A stretch of DNA of 64,000 nt from a virus: positions 34,586 through 98,585 of IMG/VR virus record IMGVR_UViG_3300033149_005152, one strand, 5' to 3'. The notes under the pieces were generated by a model. It was not told where the DNA came from, did not search any database, and saw nothing but the letters and a program-made list of their open reading frames with translations. A program made the position numbers and the translations under genes. This document shows, one piece after another, positions 38,210 through 61,151 of this stretch; the first letter of the stretch is position 1, and each line of letters starts with the position of its first letter.

Positions 38210-39064
38210 TTATCGAATATAAAAACGACCTTTTTGTGGAATTCCAGGAAATCCACCAAATCTTTCGTAATTACCATGAGATTTACAATCAGTAAACGTT
38301 TTTTTACAAGTAGTTAAAGCCCCAAAATACCCACATTCAGTTCCTATTTTATATAAAGACGTAGTATCTATTGCGGTAGGCATCGCAGTAACTAAAGTAA
38401 CACCACCCGCTAATTTCTTAGCTATTACCGAACTACTACCTGAATTTGCACCACTATAAATATAAACAACTCTACCAACAACTTTTGTAGCTACACCTAA
38501 AACATCAGAGTCAATAAGAGTAACTTTATCAGAACTTGCTTCAGCAGTACCAGTATAATAAGGAGTATATTTATAAACCCACTGACATAAATCTCTTTGA
38601 TACCGGCGAATAGGAATATCTATCGTATGTAAATTAACAGAACTACAAGTAAATTTCGCATCGTTTTCTCCTATATGAACTCTCGAAATATAAAATTTTT
38701 CTTTTATACAAGCATCTTTATCATCAAGATTATCCCTAAATACAGTTATAATAACAACTTGTAATCCTGATAAACCACTACCATGATGCAAAAGGCTGTG
38801 AATATACCTATCAATATTCGGATAAATAAACTCAACAGTAGGAATTTCCCCCCTGTTACTTATTTCAATTCTTTCATGATGTACTCCCGACTTTGTATAT
38901 GTTTGAGGAGCATCAGTATCAGGTTCAAAATAATCCACGTCATCAATATCCTGAGCAAGATAAAGATATGAGTTACTATCTATTTGGACCCTATAAAGTG
39001 TTATAGGTTGATTTTCTAGTTTATCTTTTTGAGTTCTAAATGGCTGTGTAATATCTATAGGCAT
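38210..39064 (-). CDS. gpL-like minor tail protein
   Basis: IPIRRYQRDLCQWVYK...ECGY...CKKTFTDC...FGGFPGIP (4-Cys motif). Confidence 0.88.
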   Translation of the reverse strand: MPIDITQPFRTQKDKLENQPITLYRVQIDSNSYLYLAQDIDDVDYFEPDTDAPQTYTKSGVHHERIEISNRGEIPTVEFIYPNIDRYIHSLLHHGSGLSGLQVVIITVFRDNLDDKDACIKEKFYISRVHIGENDAKFTCSSVNLHTIDIPIRRYQRDLCQWVYKYTPYYTGTAEASSDKVTLIDSDVLGVATKVVGRVVYIYSGANSGSSSVIAKKLAGGVTLVTAMPTAIDTTSLYKIGTECGYFGALTTCKKTFTDCKSHGNYERFGGFPGIPQKGRFYIR

Positions 39065-40101
39065 TATTTATTTTTCCTCTTCTTTCTTCGATAAGTAGAT
39101 GCAGTAACTCCACCAATACCCATAACAGTAGATGGATATAACCTCTTTTTCCTACGCATTTTCATTTTTGATTTATATTTTCTTTCAGCTCTCGCTTGGC
39201 GAGATGCTATTAGTTTTGTTCTTCTTATTGCTTCTGCTTTTCTTACAGACATCTCAGCCTTTCTAGCTCTTTTCGCAGGAATTAATTTTTTAGAAATAGC
39301 AGCAGTTTCATAATCAATAAGTCTTCTTCTCATTTCATTTGTAGAATATTTACCTAATTTTGGTTTTTTAGATGCCTCCGCCAAGGCACGTTCCAAATGA
39401 GGAATATCTACCTTTTTTATAATTTTTGCTGATTCTGTTAACTTCCAAATTTTGTACCGATCAACTTCCCCAGTTCCTGATCTACCCTTTCTTACTTCTT
39501 TTTTTATCAAATTACCAATTTTCCTCAATAATTTCTTCTTGGATCGTAACGCAGCCGCAGCTTCACTTTTATTATAATCAGATATAGATTTCAAATTTCG
39601 TCCCATTTCTGTAAAACCCGCAGAACCCAAATTAGACCTAACTTGCAAATAGCCCATATCACCTGTATAATAATGAGAAGGAGGTTTTGATCTTGCGTGC
39701 ATAACTTGAGAAGGGTATTCTTCACGAATGGGTTTAGGTAATTTTTCTCTTATGGCCACATTACGCCATCTCATTTTGCCACTTTTAGCCCTAGTAACTT
39801 TTTTACCCGTTATTTTTGCTAATTGTCTTGATTCTGTAGTAGGAACCCATATTCTTTTTCTTTCAGTAGGCCATCCTTCATATTTAGCAAGACGATCTAT
39901 AACTTCATCTCTTGAATACAAATTCACTTTTCTACTAACTCTTTTCTTTATATCCGATTTCGTCAAAGTTTCAATAGGGCGCACTTTGGCCTTTTTCATC
40001 ATTATCTCCTTGATCCTAGAATATGCAGTTTTCCTTATTTTACGAGTGGGAATTCCAAAAAACTCTTTTATTTTCCCTAGTTTATTAAATATTCTTGCCA
40101 A
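39064..40101 (-). CDS. highly basic protein (dispersed basic family member)
   Basis: K/R-rich, TTG start, C-terminal MGIGGVTASTY + RRKKRKNK. Confidence 0.7.
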   Translation of the reverse strand: MARIFNKLGKIKEFFGIPTRKIRKTAYSRIKEIMMKKAKVRPIETLTKSDIKKRVSRKVNLYSRDEVIDRLAKYEGWPTERKRIWVPTTESRQLAKITGKKVTRAKSGKMRWRNVAIREKLPKPIREEYPSQVMHARSKPPSHYYTGDMGYLQVRSNLGSAGFTEMGRNLKSISDYNKSEAAAALRSKKKLLRKIGNLIKKEVRKGRSGTGEVDRYKIWKLTESAKIIKKVDIPHLERALAEASKKPKLGKYSTNEMRRRLIDYETAAISKKLIPAKRARKAEMSVRKAEAIRRTKLIASRQARAERKYKSKMKMRRKKRLYPSTVMGIGGVTASTYRRKKRKNK

Positions 40102-40104
40102 TTA

Positions 40105-40674
40105 TTATTTCACACCTCGCTTTTTCTTCAAACGAAGAATAACATACCTTTTATTCTTATATTTAGTATAAACAAAATCCCTTTTAGGATAATTTTTTTT
40201 CAAATTCTTCAACATCCTTGTGCCAGAAACGGGCAAGACTATATCAGTAACCCTTAATCGTATCCCAGCATTTTCAGCTACTCTATTTTTTCTAATATTT
40301 AAATAAGCCCCGTAACCTAAAGAAGCACCGGAGACACCCAAAGATCCCCACATAATACCCGATAAGGTTTTATCTATCTTTCCATACGGGCTACTCCTAT
40401 ATTCTTTTTTAAATAACTCCTTTAACCTTTTTTCAGCTTCTAACTTTTTCTGCATTCTAGCTTTCGCTTTAACATTTATTCTTCTTTCAACAAATGGAGG
40501 TAAACCTTCTTTACCCCCACTTATAACCTCAAATTTATCCCTTGATCTTTCAACTTTATCATGTACACCCTTTGCTTTTGAAACTTTACCACCTTCTATA
40601 ACTCTAAGCTTATTTTTATTTCTATAAAATCTAGAAAATATTTTTCTAAGTTGTTCTAAAGATATTTTTACCAA
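40105..40674 (-). CDS. highly basic protein with Gly-rich hydrophobic segment (basic family member)
   Basis: QLRKIF motif; GIMWGSLGVSGASLGYGAY. Confidence 0.7.
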   Translation of the reverse strand: MVKISLEQLRKIFSRFYRNKNKLRVIEGGKVSKAKGVHDKVERSRDKFEVISGGKEGLPPFVERRINVKAKARMQKKLEAEKRLKELFKKEYRSSPYGKIDKTLSGIMWGSLGVSGASLGYGAYLNIRKNRVAENAGIRLRVTDIVLPVSGTRMLKNLKKNYPKRDFVYTKYKNKRYVILRLKKKRGVK

Positions 40675-40680
40675 TTGTTA

Positions 40681-41286
40681 TTAAGCCTCCTCAAATTGCA
40701 AACCTACAGTAAACAAATGATCCATTATATTATTTTTATTCATATTAGAATTAGCAAATCTAACCTTATACGCCCTCATTACATTAGAATATATAGTTAA
40801 AGTATTTGTAATAGTATCCGTTGCAGTAAAAGAAATATATCCAGAACTTATTCCCGTTAACTGCCTTACTTCGTAATTATCTGCCCTTGTTTTTGAACCA
40901 GATTCCCAATTTATAATAATCACAAGATTTCCAGCCATACCAGGAGTAGTAGTAAACCTCGTGATGTTATTTACACCAATAGTATTTACACCAGGATTCG
41001 TAGCTATACTACATCTCGCCTCATAATGCCATGAAGGAATATAAAATCTATCACATCCACCCTTTACGGCATCAAAAAAATCTCCTATTTCCTCAACTTC
41101 CTCCCATGAAGTCACGGGATAAGGGGCAAAATTTAAATTAAAATAATACTTAGGTCTATTCCACTTATTTCTCGCCTGAACATATCCAGCCTCAAATGGA
41201 GTTTTCAAAGTTTTGAAAGTTCTTCCTTCTTTCCAAGTTGCTAGTATAGGTTCCCAATGAAATATTGTCAAAACTTCAGTACTCAT
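40681..41286 (-). CDS. gpM/distal-tail-like protein
   Basis: T..TPFEAGYVQAR..W...DFF....G...F...W...VRF pattern; follows the TMP. Confidence 0.7.
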   Translation of the reverse strand: MSTEVLTIFHWEPILATWKEGRTFKTLKTPFEAGYVQARNKWNRPKYYFNLNFAPYPVTSWEEVEEIGDFFDAVKGGCDRFYIPSWHYEARCSIATNPGVNTIGVNNITRFTTTPGMAGNLVIIINWESGSKTRADNYEVRQLTGISSGYISFTATDTITNTLTIYSNVMRAYKVRFANSNMNKNNIMDHLFTVGLQFEEA

Positions 41287-41594
41287 TTATCTCCACCATT
41301 ATTCATTCTATATTCTCGTGGATAAACCGATTTTAATATTTGCTTAATCAAGGCAATATCAATGTTCATTTTATTTAATTCCTTACGAATTTCTTCTTGA
41401 CTTTCATGATGTTTACAAATTAAATCATCAAACTTTTTTTCAAATTTTTCATCAAATTTCTTCAAACTAATTATTTTACTTTCAGCAACCGCAAATTTAT
41501 TACAATTATATACAATACCACCAATTACAGTAATTAATAAAAAGACAACAGAAATAATAAGTGTACCCCAATTAAATATTTTTTGGTTTTGCAA
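41283..41594 (-). CDS. membrane-anchored coiled-coil protein (holin-like)
   Basis: Single N-terminal TM segment plus coiled coil. Confidence 0.5.
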   Translation of the reverse strand: MQNQKIFNWGTLIISVVFLLITVIGGIVYNCNKFAVAESKIISLKKFDEKFEKKFDDLICKHHESQEEIRKELNKMNIDIALIKQILKSVYPREYRMNNGGDK

Positions 41595-41597
41595 CTT

Positions 41598-44500
41598 TTA
41601 CATTCGCCCCCTTAACATTTTATTTAATTCCCTCTTTTCAGAATAATTTCTCATCACGCTATCTATACTTATTCTTCCAATCAATCCCTGCTCTTGAGCA
41701 AGTAATTTCTGAAAACTAGGAGCATCAACAGCACTAATATTAATCACGGTTATTCCAGACTCAGGTTCAATTCCTCCACCAGTATTCGCTCTTTCAACAG
41801 AAGTACGCCCCAATGCTTTTACAGCATTAGCATTAAGAATATACTCCCCTGAATGAATTGTGGCTAATCCGGATTTAGAAACATAACCTCCTGCTTGATG
41901 ACTATCAGGTATTCCCGAAGGAGTTAACAAATCAGTTACCTTTATAGGAGCTTTACCACCACCAACCTTACTATCACCACTAGGAAAAAGACCCATACCC
42001 CATTCAAGAAGTTTAAAAGCCATAAGCTGGGCAATCATCTTATTTAACGATCTTAAAAAATTTATTGCAAATTGCTTCCAAACATTATCTGCCTCTTTAA
42101 TATTTTCAGTCATATCCGCAAAGGCATCACCCAATCCCAAAACCGTTTGTTTAGCCATATCAGTAATAGCCTTTCCATATTCATATCTCCATGTTTTTAT
42201 ATCATCTTTAGATTCTTCAAAATGTTCTTTCATAGAATCCCAAATAGATATATTTTGAATTCTTGCTTTTTCTGCTTGAGCATATCTTAAAGAAGCAAGG
42301 CCAACTTCATCCCTTCGCATAATGGCTAACATCTTTTTCCGATGTATATATTCATCTTCCGTAATTTGTTTCATCTTTCGTGCATGTTCCAAAGCTAAAT
42401 CTTCTAATTCTCGATTTATTTGTTCTTCATGTGATTTAATTATATCATCAATTCGTAATTTAGTATTTTTTATTTCTTCATCAATAAGCTTCAATTGTTC
42501 CCCATATTGTTTTACCACTTTTAAATGATCTTTATAATCCATTTTTAATATTTTATACTTTTCTTCTTCAAATATTAAGAGTGAAGCAATTATATTTTTT
42601 CTTCTTTCTAATGCATCTAATTGTATTTCGCCCAATTTTTCCTGATAAACTTTTTCACTAATTTGATTAGTCGCTCTTAAACGATCCAATCTCACCCTTT
42701 CTCTCTCATCCATCTTTGTTTCCAAATCATTCCTGGCTTCCAATTCATCTTTTAATTCTTGCATTATTCTTTCGGCATCTTCCTTTCGTGCCGCACCTAT
42801 AGTAGATATTTCCTCATATTTTAAATTAATAAGTTTTTGAGCATATTCCTTTCTCCAAAGTTCTGCTCGATGAAAAAAGTCTTTCCTCTCGTCTTCGCTT
42901 ATTTTAGCAGCTTTCATATCTACCTTATACGCTATTACTCTTTGTTTATGCCGCATAAGTTCAGCATCTAATTCCTTCTTAGCCAATTCCATAACTCCTT
43001 TTGCATATTCTTCCTGAGACATTCTACCTTTTCTTAACTCTTGATCTAATTTTCCTCTTTCTTCTGCAATTTTATTTACAGAATCATGATAAGCTAATTC
43101 AAATGCCCTAAAATTCTCTTCTATTCTTCTAGCCGCAGCTTCAGGAGAATCCTCAATAGGTTGTAATGTAGCCAATACCTTTGAAGTTAATGGAAACTCA
43201 GCTTCCTTTATCAACTCTTTAAGCTCTTCTCCTGCTTTTATCACTTCCACTTTGAGCTTTGTTATACGTTTATCACGCTTTTCTTGATATTCCTCTGGAC
43301 CAAAAAGCATATCAAGAAGAAAATTTCTAGGCCCTTTTCTATACTTATCACCTTCTTTAGTAGCTTTTCTTGCCTTTTTACCCAACTCCTCATAGGCCGA
43401 AAAATATTTGGCACTTAACTTCTTCAAACCAACCTCAAAAGATTTAGCCATAATTTCAAAAGAAGAAGTAAAATATCCAGCAGATGCTTTAGAAGCATCC
43501 TCCATAGCACTACCAATTATTGACAATTCATCCTTTAATTCAGATAGGGCTTTACTTTCTTTTTTTATCTCTTTCGTATACTCCTTTGTATAACCTATGG
43601 ACCTTAATATTGCTTTTTCATCTTCTTTTTTTGCTTCTCTAAGCATCCCAAATAATTTAATAATAGCAGGCAAACTAACTTTATAAAGAATATAAAGAAG
43701 TGTCATCCATGCCGTTAAAGGAACAATCATCCTTGCTATAACAGCAGCAAGCATAACAAATCTAGTATAAAGAAATGTTAAAGACTTAAGAAGCACTCCC
43801 CTAATTAATGCCCCTAAAGTAGCCCCTTGAAGAGCTAATCCAGCTAATTTAACCTTCGTTTTTTCTGCCGCTTTACCAAGAACAGGAAATTTTTTAGCAA
43901 CTCTATCTACTGAAACAAAAATACCACCAAAAATAGCCGGAATTTTAAGATGTAAAATATACTTTGCAAATTTAATAAGCTGAGCAACAACCAAAAAACC
44001 AAAAGCAAATTTCAAAGCCTTACCAAATATTAACAAGGATGTTCCAATAAATCTATAAGCTTCACCTATAGCCCTCAAAACATTTGGAGGTATTTTTAAA
44101 ATAGCATCCGCAAATTTATTTAAAACCTCGTACCATACCATAAAAACACTTTCAGAAGGTTTTCCACCAAGTTTCTGTGCTATCAATTCTAAATTAGAAT
44201 GAAATAACTTTATCTGACCCGCCAAAGTCTCAACATTCGCCTGCATTGATTTTCCAAAAAATCTATCTAATATCTCTCTCAATGCCCTATACCTAACAAC
44301 ACTTTTTTCCACCTTTGTAAGACCTTTCCAAGATTTACCAAGTTCTTCTGTAAATTTTTCAACTTCATGCCCTGTTGAACCTAAATCAATACCATAACTT
44401 CTTAAATGCTGAGGAATGCCTTTAAAAGCCATATTTACTGCATCAATTATATCTAAAAAAGCACCTGGTTGACCAATAGAAGTAGCAAAATCAGAAATTC

Positions 44501-45815: not shown

Positions 45816-45938
45816 ATGATCCTCCTATTTATTATTAAAATTTATTATTAAAAAATAAGTTTTCCTTCTCTTATAGAATAGAAATTTATTTCTTATTTAT
45901 TTTACCTTCTTTCCCAACCAGCCCCCACATTATTCTAA

Positions 45939-46208
45939 CTACAAGATGCGTCTCTTTTTTCTCCTCTGAGGAGATCGGCCGTATGCTATATAACCCCCAA
46001 TATGACTTCTTGCCTGCCTTATTCTACGCCTGCCCATTACAGAAGCATATTTTCTACCATAACGCAATCTTTCACCTATATTACGCCTCAAAGACCCCAC
46101 ACTCCTACGCCGTCCAGCAGGAAGTCTTGTATAGTATCTTCCAGCCCTTTTCCTTGCACTTCCAACTAAATTTATTAATTTTTTCAATAAAGAACTATAT
46201 GCAGCCAA
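45939..46208 (-). CDS. small Arg-rich protein (basic family member)
   Basis: GGAGG SD + TTG; KLINLV; IGGYIAYG + RRKKRR. Confidence 0.7.
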   Translation of the reverse strand: MAAYSSLLKKLINLVGSARKRAGRYYTRLPAGRRRSVGSLRRNIGERLRYGRKYASVMGRRRIRQARSHIGGYIAYGRSPQRRKKRRIL

Positions 46209-47081: not shown

Positions 47082-47107
47082 TTATAAAGTCAGTCCTCCT
47101 TAAAATT

Positions 47108-47302
47108 TTATATTTTTTTCTTAAAACGTCTTTTTCCTAATAATTTTCTTGCTCTTTTCCTTGCTTTTTTCTTTCTTACTCTCTCAGGAAGGCTCAATCC
47201 TTTTGATGCTTTATCCCATTCAGCTACGACCTTAGAACTAATTTCACCTCTTTTTAACATGGCGTGAAATTTCCTCCGTTGTGCTTCAGATTTATATGGA
47301 AT
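47108..47302 (-). CDS. 64-aa basic protein (M)PYKSEAQRRKFHAM..., apparent ATT start
   Basis: Not in the ORF track; GAGGTG SD 7 nt before ATT CCA; open to TAA at 47108. Confidence 0.65.
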   Translation of the reverse strand: MPYKSEAQRRKFHAMLKRGEISSKVVAEWDKASKGLSLPERVRKKKARKRARKLLGKRRFKKKI

Positions 47303-47308: not shown

Positions 47309-47380
47309 TCACCTCTTTTTAGGTTTTCCCTTTCTTTTACTATATTTTAATTTTTGTCTTCTTTTGTGTTTCATAGGCAT
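47309..47380 (-). CDS. 23-aa protamine-like peptide MPMKHKRRQKLKYSKRKGKPKKR
   Basis: ATG immediately after the stop of the 47383 gene; fills the gap. Confidence 0.4.
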   Translation of the reverse strand: MPMKHKRRQKLKYSKRKGKPKKR

Positions 47381-47382
47381 TA

Positions 47383-47757
47383 TTAATATTTTTCCCTTTT
47401 TTTACGTTTTTTAGAAATTTTGGGGTGTCGCAACGTACCATACTTTTTATAAAGTGCAGCCGAACTTAATCCAGTCGCCCCTAAAACAGCAGCTATACCC
47501 CCGTATTTTTTAGCAATTCGTTTTCTCTCCGCCGTAAATGGAGTTACTCCATATTTGTATCTGCGCCTAGTTGATCTAACAGCTCCTCCAACTCTATCTT
47601 TTACACCTCTAATTTTACGCCCTACAGCAAATTTACCACGCCTTGCCTTTGAAAGAGCTTCCCTTCCATATCTAGCGGGCTTAGCCTTAATTTTGGCTAA
47701 AAGCCTTCTTAATTGACCGATTCTCTTCATTGATCTTGCCATATTCGTTAATGCCAT
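47383..47757 (-). CDS. Arg/Lys-rich protein (basic family member)
   Basis: QLRRLL; GGIAAVLGATGLSSAALY; K/R tail. Confidence 0.7.
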   Translation of the reverse strand: MALTNMARSMKRIGQLRRLLAKIKAKPARYGREALSKARRGKFAVGRKIRGVKDRVGGAVRSTRRRYKYGVTPFTAERKRIAKKYGGIAAVLGATGLSSAALYKKYGTLRHPKISKKRKKREKY

Positions 47758-47787
47758 TTATTAATTAGACCTCCCTTCTTAAATTTT

Positions 47788-47920
47788 TATAAATTAATAT
47801 CTTTTCTTTTTGCATTTTTTCCTATCTTTATATTTTCTGGCAAACAACCCAACTAAACCACCACCAACACTACCTATCAACTAAAAGTTCTCTCAATTTT
47901 GAAATATTTAATCTTGCCAC
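47788..47920 (-). pseudogene. decayed paralog of the 48626 basic protein
   Basis: GTG-ARLNISKLRELL then stop; other frames give IGSVGGGLVGVV and ARKYKDRKKCKRK. Confidence 0.6.
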
Positions 47921-48625: not shown

Positions 48626-48877
48626 TTAATCTTTTTTCTTTTTCTTTCTTATGCGTTTTTTTAGAGCATAACCACCATATAAACCAGCACCTATTTCAGT
48701 AGCTAAACCCATTCTTTCATAACGTTTTGGATTTTTGAGATAGGACTGCCTAGCTTTACTTCTACCCAATCTTATGCGACTTCTCATAGCCACATTCTTC
48801 CTCCATGCATGGTATCTAGCTTTTTTCTTTAATTTAGATAAAAGTTCTCTTAATTTTCCAACATTCATTCTTGCCAT
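48626..48877 (-). CDS. small Arg/Lys-rich protein (basic family member)
   Basis: KLRELL; GLATEIGAGLYGGYAL; KKRIRKKKKKD. Confidence 0.7.
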   Translation of the reverse strand: MARMNVGKLRELLSKLKKKARYHAWRKNVAMRSRIRLGRSKARQSYLKNPKRYERMGLATEIGAGLYGGYALKKRIRKKKKKD

Positions 48878-49646: not shown

Positions 49647-52600
49647 TTATGAAATTCGAGTCATCTCAACAAATCTATCCACATTCATAGAAATAAATTC
49701 CCTAAATTCTTTTTCGGTTACAAACCATAATGTCTGCGGTTTATATTCACCTTTTGCATCCAAACCACCTATTCCACCAGCTAGAGTAAATGCTACTTGA
49801 AACGGAGGCATATTAGTTTCTTCCATTGGAATTCCAAATCTACCCAATCTCTCCAATGCTTGTTGTGTTACCACGGTAGATAATTTATGATAAATATTTT
49901 CAGGATTATCAAATCCAGCTTCTTTATAAATTCTATAAACTGACTTCAAATATCTTTCTCCATCCGCCCCTAATTTTCCTTCAAGAGCTTCTATCTCCCA
50001 ATTAGTTAAATTAATATAATCTCTCTGCATCAAAACTTTACCTAATTGTCTTTGTGGATGAAGCTGGCGATCCTTCTTTAATAATCTTAAATTTCTAAAG
50101 GCACATTTAGCACGTCTTTGCTCTTCAATAATATATCCAAAATGTGCTATATCTACGTCAGGCAACATCAATGCGGGCCATATGGGAGTATCCATACCAT
50201 TTTCCACATGTTCGTGGATACAATTGTGAACCACTATTCCATTAGCTACATAATTATGATTATCCTGAACCTCCATATTATAAACATCTGTTTTACCAAT
50301 TTTTTCTATTTTAGTAATTATATGATTTGATCTAAATCTTTCAAGATCACTTCTTCTTTGTATTTTTAATTCTTCCCATTTTTTTACTAATTCTGAAACA
50401 TCTTTATTATTCCTTTTATCATTTCTAATTTGTGCCAGCAATTTCCATTGTTCTTTAGACCATTTTTCTCTACTTTTTTGACCTATTTTCTTCTTTGTTT
50501 CTTCAGAATGATGTCTCCCAAAATTAGGATTATTTTTTCCACTCACATCATAATGATTTTTTGAAATCAACTTTTTTGTCCTTTCGGAAACAAATTTACC
50601 GAGGTGATGTAAAGAAACGTGATCCTTAGATTTCATTAATTCTAAATTATTAATAGAATTATTAAAAGTATTTTTATCTTTATGATGCCCATCTCCATCA
50701 AATTTACCATTCATAACTTCTAAAATATATCTATGTTCAGATACACGATTATTCTTTCTCAATATTTTGTCACTGCAATCAACATTATTTATTAACCAAT
50801 ATTTTTTTTCTAACATTCTTCTAAATGGTAAAAGTGAATCCCCAACTTTTAAATCTGATACATTTTTATAAATGTTATTGAATAACATCACCGGATGATT
50901 ACCGGTAATTTTCAACGAATCAACTTTTCCGGTATATCCATCTTTATACGTCATTTTGTATACATCAACATTTCTACCAATACATTGAACATCCAAAATT
51001 GGTTTTAATTGGAATTTATTTAATTTTCTATTATAAGAATAACAATATTCATCCTTATAATTATTTACTAAATCTTTTATTGGTATTCCATTGGGATATT
51101 TGGATAAATCTCTCGGCATATCAATACAAGTATCACCAGATACACAACCATAAAACTTATATCCTTTAAAATTTCTAAATAATCTAGCTGGAACATCTGG
51201 TGTTACGTCCTTTAAATCTATACTTAAATGTTGTTGTCTAATTATGAAACATTCAAAAATTTCAGTACCAACATACTTTCTAAGATTATGAGGTCTTACC
51301 AATAATTCATCTGCATCAATCCAAAGAATAAAATCTCCAGTAGCTTTTTCTATAGATTTATTTCTAGCCCAACCAAAATTAAACAACCCGTCCCCATCAG
51401 GATCATCAGTTTCTTCATATACTATTGCACCTAATTCCTTTGCAATTTCTACCGTTCTATCGGAAGAATTACATGAAACAACAATTATTTCATCCACTAC
51501 GTCCCTAAATGACTTAATACATCTTCCTATATTATCTTCTTCATTCTTAGCAATCATACAAGCAGAAACACTTTTATATGGTCTTGTTATCAATATCTTT
51601 TTATCTACATCATATTCTCCGGTTTCTCTACTTTTATCCTTATGATACCTTATTAACCATGCTGCTATTAAATCACCTCGTGGATTTATTGCAAGGGGGG
51701 AATGTTGCAATTCAAAATCTTTTTTCTTACCAAATATTTCTTTTAGATTATTAAATTTATAATGATGAATGTGGTATCTCGATTTCCCTTGTTTTTCATA
51801 TGATTGCCACTCCATAGGGCCACTAGGAATTGTAAATATAATTAATCCATCTTCAACACACAAATCTTCCATCATATCAATATATTTTTTGTAATCCACA
51901 ACATGTTCAAGAAATTCTCCCGCAACAACCACATCATATTTATCGCCTTTAAAATCTTTATGATAATCCTCTAAATCAGAATGAATAAATGTAGGCTTAG
52001 AAATATTTCTATCTAATTGCTCATTACAAAATTCCTTGGCTACCTGTAAAACACCCTCAGTAAAATCAATTCCCGTGTAATCCACTTCCGGATTTTTAAG
52101 CATAACAGTAGTCGCTATACCACCAGCACCACAACCCACATCTAAAACACGTAACTTATTATTCCCCTTTAATCTTCGTTCATCGGCTATAAATTCTGCT
52201 ACTGCACGAAACCTTGCATTAATCTTCCATTTATCATTCGCCCATAATGCAGTATTTTCATTAAAATATTGTTCCTTATCAATCCCAACATTATCCATAA
52301 TTTCCTGAGAAATTGGTAATTCCGGTAAATCTTCCCGTTTTGCAAGGTAATGGGCAGTAACATGATCTGAATAATAAGAAAGATTCTGCCATATTTTAGA
52401 CCAATTTTTATTTGCTCTTCGAGTAAATAATTCTATTATTTTATTTTCCCATTCTTCAGCCCTATCTTTCCAACTATAATTCTTTTTAACAAAATCAATT
52501 CCTTCTTTTGCTATCCTATCATACAATTGTTTATTTTCAACAAATTCAAAAACCCTATTCGTAAAATCTTTCTGGTATTTTTCCGTTTCTAAATCACCTT

Positions 52601-53507
52601 TAACTCTACATTCATGAAATGGAACTGTCTCTGGTAATGCAAAATTATCAGTGCATATAATAGGAGTTCCCATTACTTGAGCACTAATAGCAGAAATACA
52701 TTGTATTTCTGGGAACTTACTAGGATAAATCATTAACTTAGAAGATGCCAACCATCGTAAATAATCATCCTGTTTCAACTGTCCTAAATTTACAACATTA
52801 GGAGTTTGATTTATTAATTGATTAATATAATCATAAAATTGCGTTAGATGTTCCGGTATGGGTAATCCCCGTATATCATACCCACATAACATTAATTCAG
52901 CTCTAGGATTTCTTTTTAATATTTGAGGCCATATATTCTCCAGTAACTGTTGTAATCCACGTTCAGGTCTAGATGAATAAATAAATCTGTCCTCATTCTT
53001 TTTAATTTTCCCCTCATCAAATTCTTGCCATACTTGGTCTACCATATCCATATCAAGGCCATTAGATGTAACCCAGATATGAGGATCAATTTCAGGAAAT
53101 TCTTTTGTAAATAATTCTTTATGAAAACGGCTTAAACAAAAAATATGATCCGTTTGCCACAAATGAGATGCAAAATGTGCAACATTTACCAATACGTCAT
53201 GATTTACAAGAATATTTAATTCAGAACGAAATCTTGTAACCAACTGGTCATAAAACCTATATACAAAAAATACATCAAACTCGGCCACTGTTCTAATTTT
53301 ATCAAAATTATCAAAATGATGATAATATACCCCATCATACAGACCAGGAGCATCACAATTGCACCATACCTTCACATCATGTCCTCGTGCGGCCATTTCC
53401 TTGGCCATCATAAGAAGGGCTGTTTCTGATCCCCCTAAAGCCCTTTCTTTTAATGTTCGACCAGAAAACTTCAGACCCTGAGTGTAAAAACCTATTAAAA
53501 ACTTCAT
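49647..53507 (-). CDS. multidomain GT-B (GT4-like) glycosyltransferase / SAM methyltransferase / GT-A (GT2-like) glycosyltransferase, interrupted by an intein
   Basis: LGGSET, YSSRPERGL, YPS.FPE; VLDVGCGAG, EFLEHV; CMIAKNEE, F..ARN, WIDADE, HE, HFGY. Confidence 0.9.
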   Translation of the reverse strand: MKFLIGFYTQGLKFSGRTLKERALGGSETALLMMAKEMAARGHDVKVWCNCDAPGLYDGVYYHHFDNFDKIRTVAEFDVFFVYRFYDQLVTRFRSELNILVNHDVLVNVAHFASHLWQTDHIFCLSRFHKELFTKEFPEIDPHIWVTSNGLDMDMVDQVWQEFDEGKIKKNEDRFIYSSRPERGLQQLLENIWPQILKRNPRAELMLCGYDIRGLPIPEHLTQFYDYINQLINQTPNVVNLGQLKQDDYLRWLASSKLMIYPSKFPEIQCISAISAQVMGTPIICTDNFALPETVPFHECRVKGDLETEKYQKDFTNRVFEFVENKQLYDRIAKEGIDFVKKNYSWKDRAEEWENKIIELFTRRANKNWSKIWQNLSYYSDHVTAHYLAKREDLPELPISQEIMDNVGIDKEQYFNENTALWANDKWKINARFRAVAEFIADERRLKGNNKLRVLDVGCGAGGIATTVMLKNPEVDYTGIDFTEGVLQVAKEFCNEQLDRNISKPTFIHSDLEDYHKDFKGDKYDVVVAGEFLEHVVDYKKYIDMMEDLCVEDGLIIFTIPSGPMEWQSYEKQGKSRYHIHHYKFNNLKEIFGKKKDFELQHSPLAINPRGDLIAAWLIRYHKDKSRETGEYDVDKKILITRPYKSVSACMIAKNEEDNIGRCIKSFRDVVDEIIVVSCNSSDRTVEIAKELGAIVYEETDDPDGDGLFNFGWARNKSIEKATGDFILWIDADELLVRPHNLRKYVGTEIFECFIIRQQHLSIDLKDVTPDVPARLFRNFKGYKFYGCVSGDTCIDMPRDLSKYPNGIPIKDLVNNYKDEYCYSYNRKLNKFQLKPILDVQCIGRNVDVYKMTYKDGYTGKVDSLKITGNHPVMLFNNIYKNVSDLKVGDSLLPFRRMLEKKYWLINNVDCSDKILRKNNRVSEHRYILEVMNGKFDGDGHHKDKNTFNNSINNLELMKSKDHVSLHHLGKFVSERTKKLISKNHYDVSGKNNPNFGRHHSEETKKKIGQKSREKWSKEQWKLLAQIRNDKRNNKDVSELVKKWEELKIQRRSDLERFRSNHIITKIEKIGKTDVYNMEVQDNHNYVANGIVVHNCIHEHVENGMDTPIWPALMLPDVDIAHFGYIIEEQRRAKCAFRNLRLLKKDRQLHPQRQLGKVLMQRDYINLTNWEIEALEGKLGADGERYLKSVYRIYKEAGFDNPENIYHKLSTVVTQQALERLGRFGIPMEETNMPPFQVAFTLAGGIGGLDAKGEYKPQTLWFVTEKEFREFISMNVDRFVEMTRIS
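50223..51146 (-). mobile_element. intein (308 aa) with HNH homing endonuclease and NUMOD3-like motifs
   Basis: G|CVSGDT start, ITGNHP block B, HHKDKNTFNN HNH, VYNMEVQDNHNYVANGIVVHN|C end. Confidence 0.92.
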
Positions 53508-56730: not shown

Positions 56731-57108
56731 TTATGGATAAGTCGTATTAGACAAAGCAACACTAGCATGTAATTTATCTCCTGAAACATTTGAAGTAACT
56801 TTGAGACCGATTGCAATAAACGAACATCGCTCTACAGGAATAGGAATTGCTTCCCCATAAGTTTCCGCTGCACTATATGGTTTTGTATACAAACTACACC
56901 ATATTGAACCTACCTTCCCTAGAATTATAAATTCAGCACTTGTAGATTTAAGAGTTTCAACCCAAACACCTACTGTTACTTCATTATAATCCTGCACATC
57001 TATTTGAACAGCAGTATGATCTGTTTCTCCCGCCTCATTAAAAATGTAATCAGTGGAAGTGCAATCAAAAGCAGTAAATATATCTTTTTCATGCGTTAAT
57101 ATAGCCAA
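56731..57108 (-). CDS. hypothetical beta-rich (probably virion) protein
   Basis: ORF with TTG start and GGTGG SD. Confidence 0.55.
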   Translation of the reverse strand: MAILTHEKDIFTAFDCTSTDYIFNEAGETDHTAVQIDVQDYNEVTVGVWVETLKSTSAEFIILGKVGSIWCSLYTKPYSAAETYGEAIPIPVERCSFIAIGLKVTSNVSGDKLHASVALSNTTYP

Positions 57109-57142
57109 TTATTTTTCACCCACCTTTTATTAATTAAATTCA

Positions 57143-57268
57143 TCACATATCTAATATTCTATAAACAGTACTTGAACTAATATTATAAAAATTAGCTAAT
57201 TTAGAACCATTTTCGCCTCTTAAATAAGAATCAACAATTTTTTGTTTAATTAAAATATCTAATTCCAT
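57143..57268 (-). pseudogene. 41-aa HTH-only ORF, possible remnant of a homing endonuclease or regulator
   Basis: MELDILIKQKIVDSYLRGENGSKLANFYNISSSTVYRILDM*; not in the ORF track. Confidence 0.45.
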
Positions 57269-57303
57269 AAAATTCCTTTTTAATTTTTAGTTAATTAAAT
57301 TCA

Positions 57304-57702
57304 TCAATCGAGCGAAATTTTCAACGCATTCTCAGCAAACTTGGGAGTATCCCCATCACCAATTGCTTTAGCTGCATCTAATGATCCCCATGCAACCATA
57401 TTACCAGCTTCACTTGCCGAAAATAATCCAAAATAATTTATAGTACCCCATGAACCAGTCGCTTCTGGAAATACAATAGACGTTGCATTTTCCGTTGACC
57501 CACCAGCAGCAACATCCCAATCAGTCTCTAGAGTATGTACCCTCGCATAGCCATCACCGGAATGTTCCCCTGATAAATTAGTTTCTCCGCTCAGTCCAGT
57601 TCCTAAACCAACATACAAACTTTCATGAGGTGTCCAATTACGAGTACCACAACCAAATATATGATCTAATATTTCTAATTCATAAGCATCCGAAAGACTC
57701 AT
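57304..57702 (-). CDS. conserved phage virion protein (tail/fibre-associated)
   Basis: LSD..E..ILDH...YVGL...GE.SG.GYARV...FP.ATGSWGTI..FGLF...GN pattern common in phage structural regions. Confidence 0.7.
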   Translation of the reverse strand: MSLSDAYELEILDHIFGCGTRNWTPHESLYVGLGTGLSGETNLSGEHSGDGYARVHTLETDWDVAAGGSTENATSIVFPEATGSWGTINYFGLFSASEAGNMVAWGSLDAAKAIGDGDTPKFAENALKISLD

Positions 57703-57728
57703 TTTATTAATAAAACCTCCTTAAAATT

Positions 57729-58583
57729 TTATCTACTTCTTTTAACTAATTTTTTGTAATATTTTCTACCTACAGGAGTTTGAAATAATGGATATTCTTT
57801 TACAGGTATCTCCATAACTTTTATTCCCTTCTTTTTCAACAAAACATGAAAATCCCAATTATTTTTGCCCTTTTCCAAACGAGATTGAGACCACTTCTGA
57901 ACTTCTGTAGCACTAGGCCATTTTCCACCTTTCAACCTCTCATATCTATAAACAATTCTTTTATTGGGAACAACAATATCAAATATTTTCGGTTGTGTAA
58001 CAGCACTCAAATTTAAATCTTGTTGAGAAATAGTTTGTAATTTTTGCTGTTTCACTAAAAATCTTGTACTATTGTAAGCCATTTTACGTAATGAATATTC
58101 TTTACTTCTAGGATTCATCCGAGAAAGATCATATCTCATTTCTTTTTTTAACTCTTTTAGCTCTTTTATATCCATACCCATAACTTTTTTTAAGGGTACT
58201 TTAGGATGATTATGTATCATCCAACTATGCCCTTTCACCATAAAAGGCGATCTCACAAATTGCCCAGTCTTTACATCAAGAACACCAGTATCGGACATTC
58301 TTTCTAAACCAATAGAAGGAAGTCTTACTCCATATTTTTGTCCTTTTATAACTTGACCAGTAGAAGGTAAAAGTAAAGTTTCCCTCCCATAACTTGTCAA
58401 TGCTCTCTCAGGGATTAATCTTTCTCTTCTTCTTTTTCTAAAAGAACGAGCTAATAATTCACGTAAACGAGGATTTCTAGCTATAGATTTAGCAAACCTT
58501 TTTATCGGAACAGGTTGAGTAACCCATTTTCCCAACTTTTTAGAAAAAAATCTTAATTGTTTTATTCTGGCCAATAAAGACAC
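57729..58583 (-). CDS. basic protein with JAB/JAMM-like domain (motif split by an insertion)
   Basis: QLRFF leader; RE...IHNHP...[insert]...ISQQD; paralog of the 60402 protein. Confidence 0.6.
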   Translation of the reverse strand: MSLLARIKQLRFFSKKLGKWVTQPVPIKRFAKSIARNPRLRELLARSFRKRRRERLIPERALTSYGRETLLLPSTGQVIKGQKYGVRLPSIGLERMSDTGVLDVKTGQFVRSPFMVKGHSWMIHNHPKVPLKKVMGMDIKELKELKKEMRYDLSRMNPRSKEYSLRKMAYNSTRFLVKQQKLQTISQQDLNLSAVTQPKIFDIVVPNKRIVYRYERLKGGKWPSATEVQKWSQSRLEKGKNNWDFHVLLKKKGIKVMEIPVKEYPLFQTPVGRKYYKKLVKRSR

Positions 58584-58591
58584 ATCCCATT

Positions 58592-58921
58592 TTAAAATTC
58601 TATTTGTCTTAAAATTTCACCTTTTTCATTTTTCTTAAGTTTATCCTCTTTTTTAACTTCTTCTGATTCCTTAATGGTAAAAGGAGATTTCATCATCACT
58701 CCTGTTTTTAAATCAGCAATTAGAGGCCAATCATTACGCTTTCTCGCTTGTTCTGCTCTTTCTATTAATAATTCACCCACATTTATTTCCCCAGAAGTTG
58801 TCGTAAACCCATCAGAAGAATCTGAATATCCAAATTTTTCATAATACCACGAAGGCCACCCAGACGCATCAACTACCGTTATTAATGTACCATTATTACA
58901 CGCAGTATTCGCAGTATCCAT
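58592..58921 (-). CDS. hypothetical protein
   Basis: ORF. Confidence 0.55.
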   Translation of the reverse strand: MDTANTACNNGTLITVVDASGWPSWYYEKFGYSDSSDGFTTTSGEINVGELLIERAEQARKRNDWPLIADLKTGVMMKSPFTIKESEEVKKEDKLKKNEKGEILRQIEF

Positions 58922-59391
58922 TATTTACTCCTCCTAATATAAAAATCTATCTTTTTAACCTTCTCATAAGTTAAATTATCAACTATTAAAGTTGGAGAAC
59001 GATTCAATTTAGAAATCCACAACATTTGTATATCACAATTATGCACTTTCTTACTTTCATTTATTAAATCGTTAGCATCTTTAACTAAATAATGAGATAA
59101 TTTTGTATTTCTAAATTCCTCTACTATAGATTGAAACATAAGGTGGTGATGAATTCCGTCATAAAATAATCCCATACATCCTATAGGAACCCATTTTTCT
59201 GGATTTAAAGCTACAAGAATTAAACCTCCTCGCATCAAGAAACCATTTAAAGAAACATCGTCTATATAATCAAAACCACTATTATTAATAATGGGAATTA
59301 AACCTCTTAAATATTCTTTACTTTTATCAGCATCGTCACCCAACAACATTCGATTTGATAAAACAACTAATTTATAAAATTCATCTTTCAT
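58921..59391 (-). CDS. hypothetical protein, possibly GNAT-like fold
   Basis: LILVA...PIGCMG...IVEEFRNTKLSHYLV resembles GNAT motif A (weak). Confidence 0.45.
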   Translation of the reverse strand: MKDEFYKLVVLSNRMLLGDDADKSKEYLRGLIPIINNSGFDYIDDVSLNGFLMRGGLILVALNPEKWVPIGCMGLFYDGIHHHLMFQSIVEEFRNTKLSHYLVKDANDLINESKKVHNCDIQMLWISKLNRSPTLIVDNLTYEKVKKIDFYIRRSK

Positions 59392-59400
59392 AATTATTTC

Positions 59401-60081
59401 CTATGTTTTTTTGGTTCTTATTCCTCGTCTTATATAATAAGTTTTATTATTTCTTCTCACGGGATAATAAACCCTCTTTCTGCCTACTTTTTTAGGTCTG
59501 CCCACTTTCTTCTTAACTATTATGGGAGTTGGATAAAAATCAGGATACTCCCTTCTTAATAAGGATTCCCTCCTTAATTCATTTTCCATCCTTTTTCTAA
59601 ATTCTCTTTCTTTCCTTTGTTCTAGTTCTTTTGCTTTTTGAAGTAATTCCTTTCTCTTTCTTTCTTCCCTTATCCTACGAATTTTCATCTCTTGTCCACG
59701 TCTGCGCTCTCTTAATGCTTCTCTAGCTACCATTCCTACACCTGGTGCAGCTGCGGTTCCAAATAAAACATAAGGATGAGAAATAAATCTTTCAAATCTA
59801 TCTCCACCAGCTTCTAATTTCCTCAATTTCTCTTCGCTTTGTGAAATAAATTCTTCGCCCGCTTCTATTTCTCGCCTTAATTCCTGTGCTCTTCTGGTTT
59901 CCTTATTTTTTAATCTATTATATCGTTTTTTATTTGCGCTAATTGCTCTTTTTTCTTCATTAATAATTTTTTGTAAATCAGATATTTTTACTTTTTTTCT
60001 ACGAGCAAACTGTCTACCAGTCCGTCCAGTAGCATTTAAAATATGTCTTAAAGCCGAAAGTATACTACGTCCATATGCCAC
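59401..60081 (-). CDS. basic coiled-coil protein (basic family member)
   Basis: ALRHIL; VLFGTAAAPGVGMVA; KKVGRPKKVGR tail. Confidence 0.7.
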   Translation of the reverse strand: MAYGRSILSALRHILNATGRTGRQFARRKKVKISDLQKIINEEKRAISANKKRYNRLKNKETRRAQELRREIEAGEEFISQSEEKLRKLEAGGDRFERFISHPYVLFGTAAAPGVGMVAREALRERRRGQEMKIRRIREERKRKELLQKAKELEQRKEREFRKRMENELRRESLLRREYPDFYPTPIIVKKKVGRPKKVGRKRVYYPVRRNNKTYYIRRGIRTKKT

Positions 60082-60084
60082 TTA

Positions 60085-60402
60085 TTATAATTCACCTCTT
60101 TCTATTAATAATCCTTCAAGAAGAACCATATAATTTATAATATCCCCGATTTTTTCAGTCCAATATTCTGATGGTTGAGATTGTCCTCTTTCCAATCTTT
60201 GAATATTTGTAATAATTCCAAACCAGTGCTTTGTAACTAAATTCATTAAATAACGTTCAGGTATTTCCCCTAATGCTTGAGAACCGTCTTTAAAATTACG
60301 TAATCTATCCTTTTCTACATATTCTTGCCCTTTTTGTAGTAATACCTGTTCACATTTCTCAAGTCTATTTTTTACTATCATATCAAATTCTTTTTGTGTC
60401 AT
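60085..60402 (-). CDS. DUF1599/nucleotide-modification-associated (MazG-like) protein
   Basis: KGQEY...DRLRNF...KH...EKIGDIINY. Confidence 0.7.
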   Translation of the reverse strand: MTQKEFDMIVKNRLEKCEQVLLQKGQEYVEKDRLRNFKDGSQALGEIPERYLMNLVTKHWFGIITNIQRLERGQSQPSEYWTEKIGDIINYMVLLEGLLIERGEL

Positions 60403-61151
60403 TATTTTCTCCCTTTAGACCATTTTCTTTGTCTTATTTTTCTAATAACTCTATCTAATTGTTTTTCTTTATATGTTATCCAATGATCATACTCTTTAGC
60501 TGCTTCTTTTGATACATTTTTCATAATTGGATGTTTTGAAAAAGGAATTACCTTCATTATCACATTTTCTTCAAGTTCACGTGGAACCTTTCCCTTTATT
60601 CTTGCCAAAACCTCATAATATTTTTGAGAAGTAGGCCAATTTCCATCTCTACATATAAACCTATTTACAACTCTTTTACGAGGATCAACAATATCCATAA
60701 TTTTTTCTTTATAATTTCTAGCAAGATAAACATCTGCGGTACTTGGTAATGCTATTCCCGAAGGATGATTGTGAATGTTATAACCTACACCAAGTTTTCT
60801 ACGCATTACTTCTAACGGCCTAAATCTTTTATCAAACTGGTCAAAATGTACGTTCTCTTTTCCTCCTACCACCCATTCTCGCTTAGGTTTAGCTCCTTTA
60901 CCTCTTTTTCTTAATGAAAAAGAAACTTCTCTTTTCTTACTTGCCAATGCTACAGGCATACCACCATATTTTTTACGTATTTTTCGCCGGATAAATTCAT
61001 CGGAAGTTAATTCAGTTTCTCCCAAAGCATAAATTTCATCCATTAACGTAGATAAAGTCTGTTTTTTCTTCCTTTTCGCTCTTTTATATCTCCTACTTTT
61101 ACCTAAAACGCCACGAAGTCTAAGCAGAGCAGCATATTTTTTCTTAGCCAA
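60402..61151 (-). CDS. basic protein with JAB/JAMM metalloprotease-like domain
   Basis: RLRGVL leader; RE...HNHPSGIALPSTAD = H-x-H-x7-S-x2-D. Confidence 0.7.
   Translation of the reverse strand: MAKKKYAALLRLRGVLGKSRRYKRAKRKKKQTLSTLMDEIYALGETELTSDEFIRRKIRKKYGGMPVALASKKREVSFSLRKRGKGAKPKREWVVGGKENVHFDQFDKRFRPLEVMRRKLGVGYNIHNHPSGIALPSTADVYLARNYKEKIMDIVDPRKRVVNRFICRDGNWPTSQKYYEVLARIKGKVPRELEENVIMKVIPFSKHPIMKNVSKEAAKEYDHWITYKEKQLDRVIRKIRQRKWSKGRK

Follow-up and report, generated by a model that had tools for sequence, protein, structure and literature searches.

The late region of an uncultured tailed phage, whose 98.5 kb genome is known as a metagenome contig alone (JGI/IMG), encodes a real set of late basic proteins that have common ends, and several members of which are paralogs. 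Eight of the genes and a doubtful short ORF lie in the window, by which we mean the whole 64,000-nucleotide stretch that was analysed; coordinates below refer to it unless a genome position is given.

A set of late basic genes native to the phage

All eight basic ORFs of the original prediction are where it had placed them, each on the minus strand, and their products are as extreme in lysine and arginine content as it had held (pI 10.5-12.0, K+R 24-35%, net charge +25 to +70). The full set comprises 11 late basic proteins, the eight being joined by two encoded outside the window and by a 50-aa ORF at 47108. With pI 10.5-12 and net charges of +17 to +70, the 11 are distinct from the other 118 proteins. 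A pI above 10.4 is found for 11 of 129 ORFs, 10 of which also have a K+R content of at least 24%; in 50 kb of a distant phage, one ORF in 100 is of this kind.

The 39064 protein (39064..40101; 345 aa, pI 11.0, net +70; leader MARIFNKLGKIKEFF) is translated from TTG-GCA, 3 nt past the stop codon of 40105, and its C-terminus has the Gly-rich GIGGVTASTY followed by RRKKRKNK. The automatic gene call begins at Met35; the Shine-Dalgarno site and operon spacing fit the TTG start instead. The 40105 protein (40105..40674; 189 aa, pI 10.7, net +36; leader MVKISLEQLRKIF) has a 23-aa uncharged Gly-rich stretch in its interior and a polybasic C-terminus. Three short members sit among the tail genes. That at 45939..46208 (89 aa, pI 12.0, 25% Arg), between the tail tube and chaperone genes, runs from the leader LLKKLINLV to a short IGGYIAYG stretch and an RRKKRR tail; that at 47383..47757 (124 aa, pI 11.9) lies between the tail terminator and tail tube genes; and that at 48626..48877 (83 aa, pI 11.6; leader MARMNVGKLRELL), before the neck and terminator genes, ends with IGAGLYGGYAL and KKRIRKKKKKD. 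Upstream are the basic 57729 protein (57729..58583; 284 aa), which has two leader-like motifs, IKQLRFF and RLRELL, and the 59401 protein (59401..60081; 226 aa, pI 11.2; leader ILSALRHIL), with a helical E/R/K-rich middle and an AT-hook-like VGRPKK close to its basic C-terminus. The basic 60402 protein (60402..61151; 249 aa) begins with the leader ALLRLRGVL, continues with a basic, KKYGG-bearing segment that resembles 47383 and a domain with HNHPSGIALPSTAD, and closes with a basic tail. Of the two members outside the window, one (genome 21497-22096, 199 aa) directly follows the portal gene and is without a leader, and the other (genome 626-1381) is a basic paralog of 57729 and 60402. The ORF at 47108..47260 (minus strand; 50 aa, 42% K+R) has neither leader nor Gly stretch; it is a doubtful family member and possibly a remnant.

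The basic ORFs are real genes native to this phage. Their synonymous codon usage and GC3 are the same as in the rest of the genome, and they are tightly packed, with Shine-Dalgarno sites, on a coding strand that is 58-67% purine in a genome of 32% GC. Alanine is residue 2 in 7 of the 11 basic proteins and in 10 of the 118 others, those being mostly structural (P = 5e-5), and TTG/GTG-GCN starts are common to the basic genes and the capsid, tail tube and host-specificity genes. An upstream element, ATAAAAATTTAAGAAGG (47774..47790, minus strand), lies 17 nt ahead of the start of 47383 and is found also ahead of the tail tube, gp80-like fibre, scaffold-like and 41283 genes. These signals suggest that the basic genes are likely to be expressed late and strongly.

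Identification of the neighbours bears out the proposal that the genes separate normally contiguous tail genes: they interrupt the siphophage/RcGTA-type order, where those neighbours are usually adjacent. The tail module, rather than the head module, contains most of the basic genes. Accessory genes of diverse sorts abound in the late region, so that a place among structural genes is weak evidence of being structural.

No homolog of the basic proteins was found in any database searched, nor any relative in the sequence collections searched. That no described family fits was anticipated, and weak RadC matches aside, no Pfam, PHROGs or NCBIfam family matched the members; apart from RadC, no curated family was significant for any of them, the lowest other E-value being 0.012, over short stretches.

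Common ends, divergent bodies and a decayed copy

Is there a common N-terminal leader, as was originally proposed? A soft h-x-x-L-R-x-h-h pattern is present at residues about 6-21 (P about 0.005 against shuffles), and a motif search on the N-termini, the check that had been suggested, led an unguided Gibbs sampler to the same motif. The proposal had staked itself on a motif commoner than in shuffled proteins, and the pairwise similarity of the N-termini does exceed both that of shuffled N-termini and that of internal segments (z = 3.0, P = 0.005 in both comparisons). At 0.61, the hydrophobic moment of the N-termini exceeds the 0.41 of other proteins (P = 3e-5), and it stands out from internal blocks of the same proteins as well (P = 0.001). 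Leave-one-out recognition of the motif clearly recovers 48626 alone, the member whose N-terminus is closest to those of the others, so the leader is a soft amphipathic pattern and no sharp signal; genome 21497 and 47108, two of the set of 11, do not have it. The N-terminal helix of the family is thus real but weak.

The shared module is larger than a 20-aa leader, and its polybasic C-terminal tail is no less consistent, being present in 10 of the 11 proteins and usually forming the protein's densest K/R cluster. Six members had been credited with a Gly/Ala-rich stretch followed by a K/R run. By a strict definition, with the uncharged Gly-rich stretch directly before the run, there are four (39064, 40105, 47383 and 48626) plus the decayed copy discussed below; the count of six is reached by a looser one, which takes in weaker versions in 45939 and 59401. 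The combination is absent from the other 118 proteins of the phage.

The description of the protein bodies as mostly unrelated needs amendment, since sequence similarity ties together 47383, 48626, 45939, the C-terminus of 39064 and the N-terminus of 60402. The 47383 and 48626 proteins are full-length paralogs (E about 1e-3), the KKYGG-Gly stretch of 47383 matches the N-terminus of 60402 (E 0.001-0.009), and 45939 is weakly similar to 47383 (E 0.018) and to the C-terminus of 39064. Sequence comparison indicates that the end modules were kept while bodies diverged past recognition.

The decayed copy reported near 47920 was found (47794..47920, minus strand), and it is no more than a leader followed by a Gly stretch and basic tail. 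Its leader ORF (47920->47870), which begins MARLNISKLRELL, has 16 codons and then a stop; the second part (47874->47794), one frame over in the +1 frame, encodes a Gly-rich stretch and K/R tail. Each part matches one end of the 48626 protein (E 0.002 in both cases), and the two DNAs share 74% identity across 65 nt that include the ribosome-binding site. From this one decaying copy, the gene birth and death that had been proposed is visible. A 23-codon polybasic mini-ORF (47309..47380, minus strand) directly past the stop of 47383 is a probable remnant.

A RadC/JAB-like signature in three members

The JAMM-like domains of the original prediction hold at the level of the motif, and in three members, not two; all scores are under the family cut-offs. 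The 60402 protein has the metal-binding motif H-x-H-x7-S-x2-D unbroken (HNHPSGIALPSTAD); in the genome 626 paralog Thr replaces its Ser, and in 57729 it is split (HNHP, about 55 aa, SQQD). The three proteins match one another (E 5e-11 and 6e-5), and a profile of them searched against 1.84 billion representatives matched themselves alone. The 60402 signature, HNHPSG-x3-PS-x2-D, aligns with RadC (Pfam E 0.0033, NCBIfam E 0.0015) and, across 24 residues, with PDB 2qlc. The Pfam RadC score is 17.8 bits, below the 22.1 cut-off, that of Prok-JAB is 12.7, below 25, and that of NCBIfam RadC is 18.2 bits, below 180. With AlphaFold2 models of low confidence, too weak to speak for or against the fold (pLDDT 53.7 for the whole protein, 63.2 for the domain only), Foldseek and VIA-align gave no JAB match, the best Z being 3.6. 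The JAB assignment is a putative one, that of one sequence motif. The signature is like that of the RadC-type JAB domains of phages and conjugative elements, with scores far under the cut-offs for those families. RadC domains are present in proteins that are believed to accompany invading DNA, and the predicted substrates of RadC-type JAB domains are nucleic acids, not ubiquitin-like tails (PMC5512222).

Possible roles and known systems

What might such proteins do? Our tentative reading, the likeliest of several, is that they form a polycationic family restricted to one phage lineage and made late in infection, which binds the phage's AT-rich DNA and rides in the particle as internal or ejection-type proteins. 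The family plan consists of an amphipathic helix at the N-terminus (h-x-x-L-R-x-h-h), a K/R-rich body with, perhaps, a payload (the RadC/JAB-like domain in three members, the E/R/K helix and AT-hook in one), often a weakly hydrophobic Gly-rich stretch, and a polybasic tail at the end. Growth of the family would have been by duplication and recombination within the late region, with turnover ongoing. The basic bodies and tails would bind the AT-rich phage DNA, the proteins would travel in the head or tail channel, and the terminal helix and Gly stretch would serve docking or oligomerisation. We infer DNA binding, a virion location and any role for the leader; DNA binding is plausible, an AT-hook-like GRP motif being present in 59401 and in two other DNA-type proteins of the phage, and packaged cargo with a common leader, as first proposed, is likewise plausible.

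The proteins might instead be nucleic-acid binders that are made late and act inside the cell, keeping replicated phage DNA condensed or protected, compacting the host nucleoid, or serving as RNA or DNA chaperones, and that are left behind, unpackaged, at lysis. The charge, the AT-hook and the expression signals fit this equally well, no finding demands a virion location, and the predicted action of RadC-type JAB domains on nucleic acids (PMC5512222) agrees with it. We consider it rather unlikely, as it leaves unexplained the place of the genes inside the tail module, the element that 47383 has in common with the tail tube, scaffold-like and fibre genes, and the conserved terminal helix and Gly stretch. 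Might those two features point to the membrane? An amphipathic N-terminal helix, a Gly-zipper-like segment and a polybasic tail could bind or perturb the host membrane, with roles in lysis timing, superinfection exclusion, or passage of DNA across the membrane after ejection. The high N-terminal hydrophobic moment would suit such a role, as would the uncharged Gly/Ala-rich segments that finish with an aromatic residue and then K/R, and the likeness of a 47383 segment to a hydrophobic segment of the tape measure protein (50% identity over 22 aa, E 0.074). We think it unlikely, however: no member has a best 19-aa Kyte-Doolittle mean above 1.19, which is too low for classical membrane helices, whereas the membrane and signal segments of this genome reach at least 1.6 and typically 2.2-3.0. 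Moreover, the segment is in 4-6 of the 11 members only, both its flanks are strongly basic, so that the topology is not clear, and it would be unusual to have nine or more redundant factors for lysis or exclusion. That holins and cationic lysis peptides have charged C-termini speaks for a membrane role; a holin or integral membrane lysis protein was considered and rejected, the charged C-terminus being present but without a clear transmembrane helix (maximum 1.19).

One might think that short basic ORFs, which readily arise and duplicate there, simply turn over on a purine-rich strand of an AT-rich genome, in a mostly neutral or selfish manner with little function, the shared ends reflecting recent common descent only. 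The decayed copy, the 23-codon mini-ORF and the 50-aa ORF do adjoin intact members, the 65-nt start region is duplicated, the coding strand is 58-67% purine, and homologs are absent from all databases searched. Such turnover would hardly be expected to keep long ORFs (189-345 aa) intact and depleted of Asp and Glu in a 32% GC genome, with native codon usage and strong ribosome-binding sites, to retain an intact or near-intact metal-binding motif in three members, or to let the end modules persist despite the bodies' divergence; we rate it slightly less probable still than a membrane role. A very improbable proposal is a processing system, in which the JAB-like trio clips the basic proteins at Gly-Gly, or the leaders are of the double-glycine export type, and basic peptides are freed. 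JAB enzymes characteristically cut after Gly-Gly, GG occurs in most members, KKYGG is common to 47383 and 60402, and the LS-x-x-(E/Q)-L-x-x-I of 40105 and genome 626 presumably recalls double-glycine leaders. Against this, GG is out of register with leader and tail, 3-16 residues before the K/R run, the 40105 Gly stretch is without GG, the searches run found neither a C39 peptidase nor an ABC exporter, the JAB fold itself is only putative, and RadC-type JAB domains are thought to be without the ubiquitin-tail groove (PMC5512222).

If the DNA-binding, particle-borne reading is followed, the internal proteins of T4 (IPI, IPII, IPIII, Alt) come to mind: diverse, largely basic proteins with a short shared N-terminal sequence. 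The capsid targeting sequence is their sole common part; it loads the proteins onto the scaffolding core, and they lie in the packaged DNA and enter the host (PMC3012670). In T4 the sequence is cut off by the head protease past [LI]-x-E, a site not conserved in our family, where it coincides with the motif in 39064, 48626, the decayed copy and the second motif of 57729 alone. No head protease was matched among ten head and upstream late proteins in a PHROGs scan, and no conserved cleavage motif follows the leader across the family, so the T4 model, on which the original prediction drew, is not directly transferable. The two groups are also without sequence similarity, and the C-terminal polybasic tail and Gly stretch of the family plan are unlike T4. 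A bolder extension, which we regard as improbable, is that the L-R-x-L-L helix and the C-terminal Gly stretch and polybasic tail make up a portable, protease-independent address format that loads changing payloads into the head or tail channel for delivery to the host, new cargo arising by duplication and recombination in the tail cluster. If true, a siphovirus would have a payload repertoire that includes three RadC/JAB-like enzymes and an AT-hook protein.

To our knowledge, dedicated basic proteins that condense DNA are not a general rule among tailed phages. Elsewhere, in eukaryotic DNA viruses, adenovirus VII/mu and ascovirus P64 are described as Arg/Lys-rich proteins that condense genomic DNA for encapsidation (PMC6163548); our family is like these protamine-like core proteins in Arg/Lys richness, in unrelated viruses and with no homology. 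The gp6.7 and gp7.3 proteins of T7 are small head/tail-channel proteins that are ejected, and the lysines of gp7.3 touch the DNA end (PMC11784390). T7 is a podovirus with two single-copy genes, without expanded paralogs or a shared leader or tail module, and the likeness is not a claim of homology; small and encoded among virion genes, gp6.7 and gp7.3 are nonetheless the best precedent for small basic proteins of the tail channel.

The basic proteins and their phage

All eight of the extremely basic genes named in the original prediction (39064, 40105, 45939, 47383, 48626, 57729, 59401 and 60402, each called by its position in the window) were found as described. Their products have pI values of 10.5-12.0, K+R contents of 24-35% and net charges of +25 to +70. 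When ORFs of at least 50 aa are counted through the genome, 11 of 129 have a pI above 10.4, and K+R is at least 24% in 10 of these 11. The count adds three proteins to the eight: a third paralog of the JAB-like proteins 57729 and 60402 (626-1381 in whole-record coordinates, hereafter "genome"), a 199-aa protein whose gene directly follows the portal gene (genome 21497-22096), and the 50-aa ORF 47108. For a baseline, Microcystis phage Mvi-JY20, which is distantly related, has one ORF so basic among 100 in 50 kb. It is clear that we are dealing with a real and unusual family with a defined architecture, without relatives in any database searched.

The genome, of which the window covers bases 34586-98585, has 98,585 bp, 32% GC and a 114-bp terminal repeat, and is therefore a complete, circularly assembled phage genome; the minus strand carries every gene. 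Profile searches show that the phage is long-tailed and that its tail tip is RcGTA-like, and identify the tail terminator (47928; PF12691, 1.4e-13), the tape measure protein (41598), a BR0599/gpL-like hub protein (38210) and an NlpC/P60 peptidase (37793), while the DUF2460-like distal tail protein (40681) is a weak match, under the Pfam threshold. The 279-aa tail tube candidate (46242), which is without a profile match, and the chaperone candidate (45342) are assigned by position alone, and a putative host-specificity protein of 1,979 aa is read from size and position. The head genes lie outside the window; they encode terminase, portal, adaptors, an acidic scaffold-like protein and the capsid protein, whose gene is split by an intron. 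Some 37 kb of accessory genes separate the adaptor genes from the tail terminator, so that a position among the late genes is weak evidence of a structural role.

Several other features of this genome deserve mention. A clear homolog of gp80, a fibre protein of the podophage GP4, is encoded in this long-tailed phage at 57304-57702 (PF23140, E 1.8e-28), directly downstream of JAB-like gene 57729. At 49647-53507 there is a 1,286-aa glycosyltransferase-methyltransferase-glycosyltransferase fusion, split by an intein with HNH and NUMOD3 motifs. An 80-nt direct repeat (71% identity; 62796-62875 and 63700-63779) duplicates the signal-peptide-coding start of the gene for a 564-aa secreted protein, and the second copy appears to be a remnant. 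The AT-hook motif KKRGRPVGSKN is found twice in a 343-aa Cys-rich basic protein (25289-26320), and MAKRGRPK opens an acidic 273-aa protein (12665-13486), which suggests that minor-groove DNA binders are used by this AT-rich phage.

Relatives were sought widely. With 47383, 60402 and 39064 as queries, a word-indexed search over 5.8 billion clusters returned only their own records, and full HMMER with a profile of the three JAB-like paralogs returned, from 1.84 billion representatives, only the paralogs and an identical fragment. Nothing was found by tblastn of 39064, 60402, the tail tube and the gpL-like protein against 50,697 phage records, nor in viral contigs scanned for the portal and tail tube proteins and for a back-translated pattern of the leader. 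Apart from this contig, which comes from JGI/IMG, family proteins are present only on an identical fragment of 3.7 kb, likewise from JGI/IMG. Terminase matches, to one phage of Microcystis and one of Leptospira, reach only 21-29% identity, and no relative of the phage at a useful distance was found in the databases searched. The ESM Atlas gave unnamed viral clusters at 0.84-0.87, under the meaningful level, and low-confidence models only. Literature searches gave no description of such a family, in agreement with what had been predicted. A likeness of the region upstream of 47108 to the small DUF3008 family, and a likeness to ribosomal proteins bS21/bL20 from the MAR... start and ALRR-type motif, were without Pfam support.

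The two ends and a decayed copy

Do the basic proteins share an N-terminal leader, the amphipathic LRxLL-type motif originally proposed? A Gibbs sampler given the first 32 residues alone, with the composition of the basic proteins themselves as background, recovered the motif h-x-x-L-R-x-h-h, which begins between residues 6 and 9 in eight of the proteins and at residue 13 in a ninth, with a score about 2-3 SD over shuffled N-termini. In a pairwise comparison that presupposes no pattern, the best ungapped BLOSUM62 scores between N-termini average 10.8, versus 7.9 +/- 0.9 for shuffled N-termini and 6.4 +/- 1.5 for internal segments of the basic proteins (z = 3.0, P = 0.005 for each). The N-terminal hydrophobic moment, 0.61, exceeds the 0.41 of other proteins (P = 3e-5) and the 0.48 of internal blocks of the same proteins (P = 0.001). 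Regular expressions for the leader match 7 of the 11 basic proteins and 1 of 118 others, a comparison biased by patterns written after seeing the data. Leave-one-out recognition is weak: 48626 alone was clearly recovered, 47108 fell near the middle of the ranking, and the other members were in about the top 5-30% of N-termini. The shared leader thus stands as a tendency above chance, though it is missing from genome 21497 and 47108; because leave-one-out recognition is weak despite the above-chance tests, the leader is an amphipathic helix of soft pattern, in which L-R-x-h-h is the favoured core, rather than a sharp signal. One automatic gene call starts 39064 at Met35, by which the leader would be lost; it is the TTG start, not Met35, that has a Shine-Dalgarno site and operon spacing.

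The C-terminal ends are also alike. In 10 of the 11 proteins at least five of the last ten residues are K/R, and in eight of those ten the tail ranks among the densest K/R windows of the protein. Six members had been said to carry a Gly-rich stretch followed by a K/R run; such a stretch, uncharged, Gly-rich, at least 11 residues long and with a K/R run after it, is found in four (39064, 40105, 47383 and 48626), in the decayed copy described below, and in none of 118 other proteins, with shorter or interrupted versions in 45939 and 59401. The best 19-residue hydropathy of these stretches is at most 1.19, versus 2.2-3.0 in the genome's clear membrane and signal segments, which rules them out as classical membrane helices. 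The tape measure protein has a hydrophobic segment with 50% identity to the 47383 stretch over 22 residues (E 0.074).

The predicted decayed copy near 47920 is real. It opens with a GTG-GCA start at 47920, encoding MARLNISKLRELL..., and meets a stop after 16 codons; a Gly-rich stretch and K/R tail, shifted by one frame, run down to 47794. The leader and tail pieces correspond to the two ends of protein 48626 (E 0.002 for either), and the DNAs have 74% identity over 65 nt, with the ribosome-binding site within. In effect the remnant is a leader joined straight to the C-terminal module, and it shows the parts by which the family is defined. In the spacer after 45939 (45816-45938), there are short frames, ...IMWGLVGKEGKINKK* among them, that resemble a further eroded remnant of Gly stretch plus Lys, though they are too short to judge.

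Two of the predicted proteins had been assigned JAMM-like domains. An exact H-x-H-x7-S-x2-D motif is present in 60402; Thr replaces the Ser in genome 626, and in 57729 HNHP and SQQD are about 55 residues apart. RadC matches are limited to the same 24 residues of 60402 (Pfam E 0.0033, NCBIfam E 0.0015, structure 2qlc E 0.86) and are well under family cut-offs, and two AlphaFold2 models too weak to decide on the fold (pLDDT 54 for the whole protein, 63 for the domain alone) gave no JAB match by Foldseek against PDB or a wide VIA-align search. The motif holds up, the fold is unconfirmed, and from the motif the JAB reading is probable.

Relatedness, turnover and start signals

The protein bodies, originally thought mostly unrelated behind one leader, are tied together in several members by sequence matches, with E-values that are somewhat flattering, being computed without composition correction. 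The alignment of 47383 with 48626 is full-length (E about 1e-3 in a search against the genome), and 47383 has an R-K-x-I-x-K-K-Y-G-G segment in common with 60402, within the first 90 residues of the latter (E 0.001-0.009). Protein 45939 has weak links to 47383 and to the 39064 C-terminus, and the three proteins of JAB type are clearly paralogous (E 5e-11 and 6e-5). On these alignments the family is a partly related group whose ends are kept and whose middles have diverged or been swapped. Flanking repeats, as of mobile cassettes, were sought around the basic genes, and only the 47882/48839 duplication was found. Elsewhere, two otherwise different proteins (58592-58921; genome 3220-3660) have a common end, GE(I/L)LRQIEF, whose coding DNA (about 30 nt, near-identical) lies immediately before 57729 and before the gene at genome 2564; this shared end looks like a recombination joint. 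The N-terminal half of the genome 3220 protein is also basic and leader-like.

The basic ORFs have the marks of ordinary genes: in synonymous codon usage and GC3 they cannot be told apart from the other genes of the phage, and they are packed tightly against their neighbours, with Shine-Dalgarno sites. Ala is at residue 2 in 7 of the 11, versus 10 of 118 others (P = 5e-5), and among the ten are six that are structural or likely so: the adaptor, a putative fibre protein, the putative host-specificity and tail tube proteins, and a pair of likely virion proteins. The capsid, tail tube and host-specificity genes also begin with TTG or GTG and then GCN, and TTG or GTG starts are used by 29 of 129 ORFs. 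TTG-GCN starts are seen in many late structural genes, those of the capsid and tail tube included; the loci noted are 46242, 31839, 30256, 56731, 39064, 45939, 60402 and capsid exon 1 (genome about 20322).

An element, ATAAAAnTTTAAGGAGG, lies 13-17 nt ahead of five starts, those of the tail tube, the gp80-like fibre (57304), 47383, gene 41283 and the scaffold-like gene (sites at window 47095-47111, 57716-57732, 47774-47790 and 41607-41623, and genome 21309-21325). Of its eight matches all are on the coding strand, with about two expected and none on the opposite strand, and it may be the -10 region of a late promoter in fusion with a Shine-Dalgarno site. The spacers from these elements to the start codon are unusually long, and capsid exon 1 is preceded by a similar TAAAATTT-AGAGGTG. 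In promoter and terminator consensus scans, sites were no more numerous than in shuffles.

Function and significance

What might such proteins do? We favour, tentatively, late-made, DNA-binding polycations, probably carried in the particle, because of their extreme charge, the AT-hook of 59401, start signals like those of structural genes, and placement in the tail gene cluster, which holds six intact members plus remnants. Packaged basic cargo is a plausible reading. The same charge would suit nucleic-acid binders that stay out of the particle, a possibility we rate somewhat lower. Membrane-active proteins, against which the low hydropathy of the Gly-rich stretches speaks, seem unlikely. Slightly less likely still is largely neutral gene turnover, to which the decayed copy speaks and the shared ends do not. 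Processing at Gly-Gly, as of double-glycine leaders, is very improbable: it fails because the GG pairs are out of register, and the searches run gave no matching peptidase.

Even if the proteins are unpackaged, about 9% of the phage's genes form a hyperbasic family without relatives in the databases searched, and gene birth and decay are visible in place, a useful case for the origin of new phage genes. If they are packaged, the system would bear on DNA charge neutralisation and the delivery of early-acting proteins by phages, and on using such tags to load foreign proteins into phage particles. The value of the case is limited by the phage being a single uncultured contig without known relatives or host.

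The T4 internal proteins, the analogy offered in the original prediction, and T7 gp6.7/gp7.3 are precedents for carried proteins. The T4 mechanism does not transfer as such to this phage, because a PHROGs scan of ten head and upstream late proteins gave no match to a head protease and the [LI]-x-E site is not conserved. Packaging of the basic proteins would instead mean a T4-like logic of cargo addressing in a long-tailed phage without a maturation protease, in which both protein ends serve as tags and enzymes are among the payloads.
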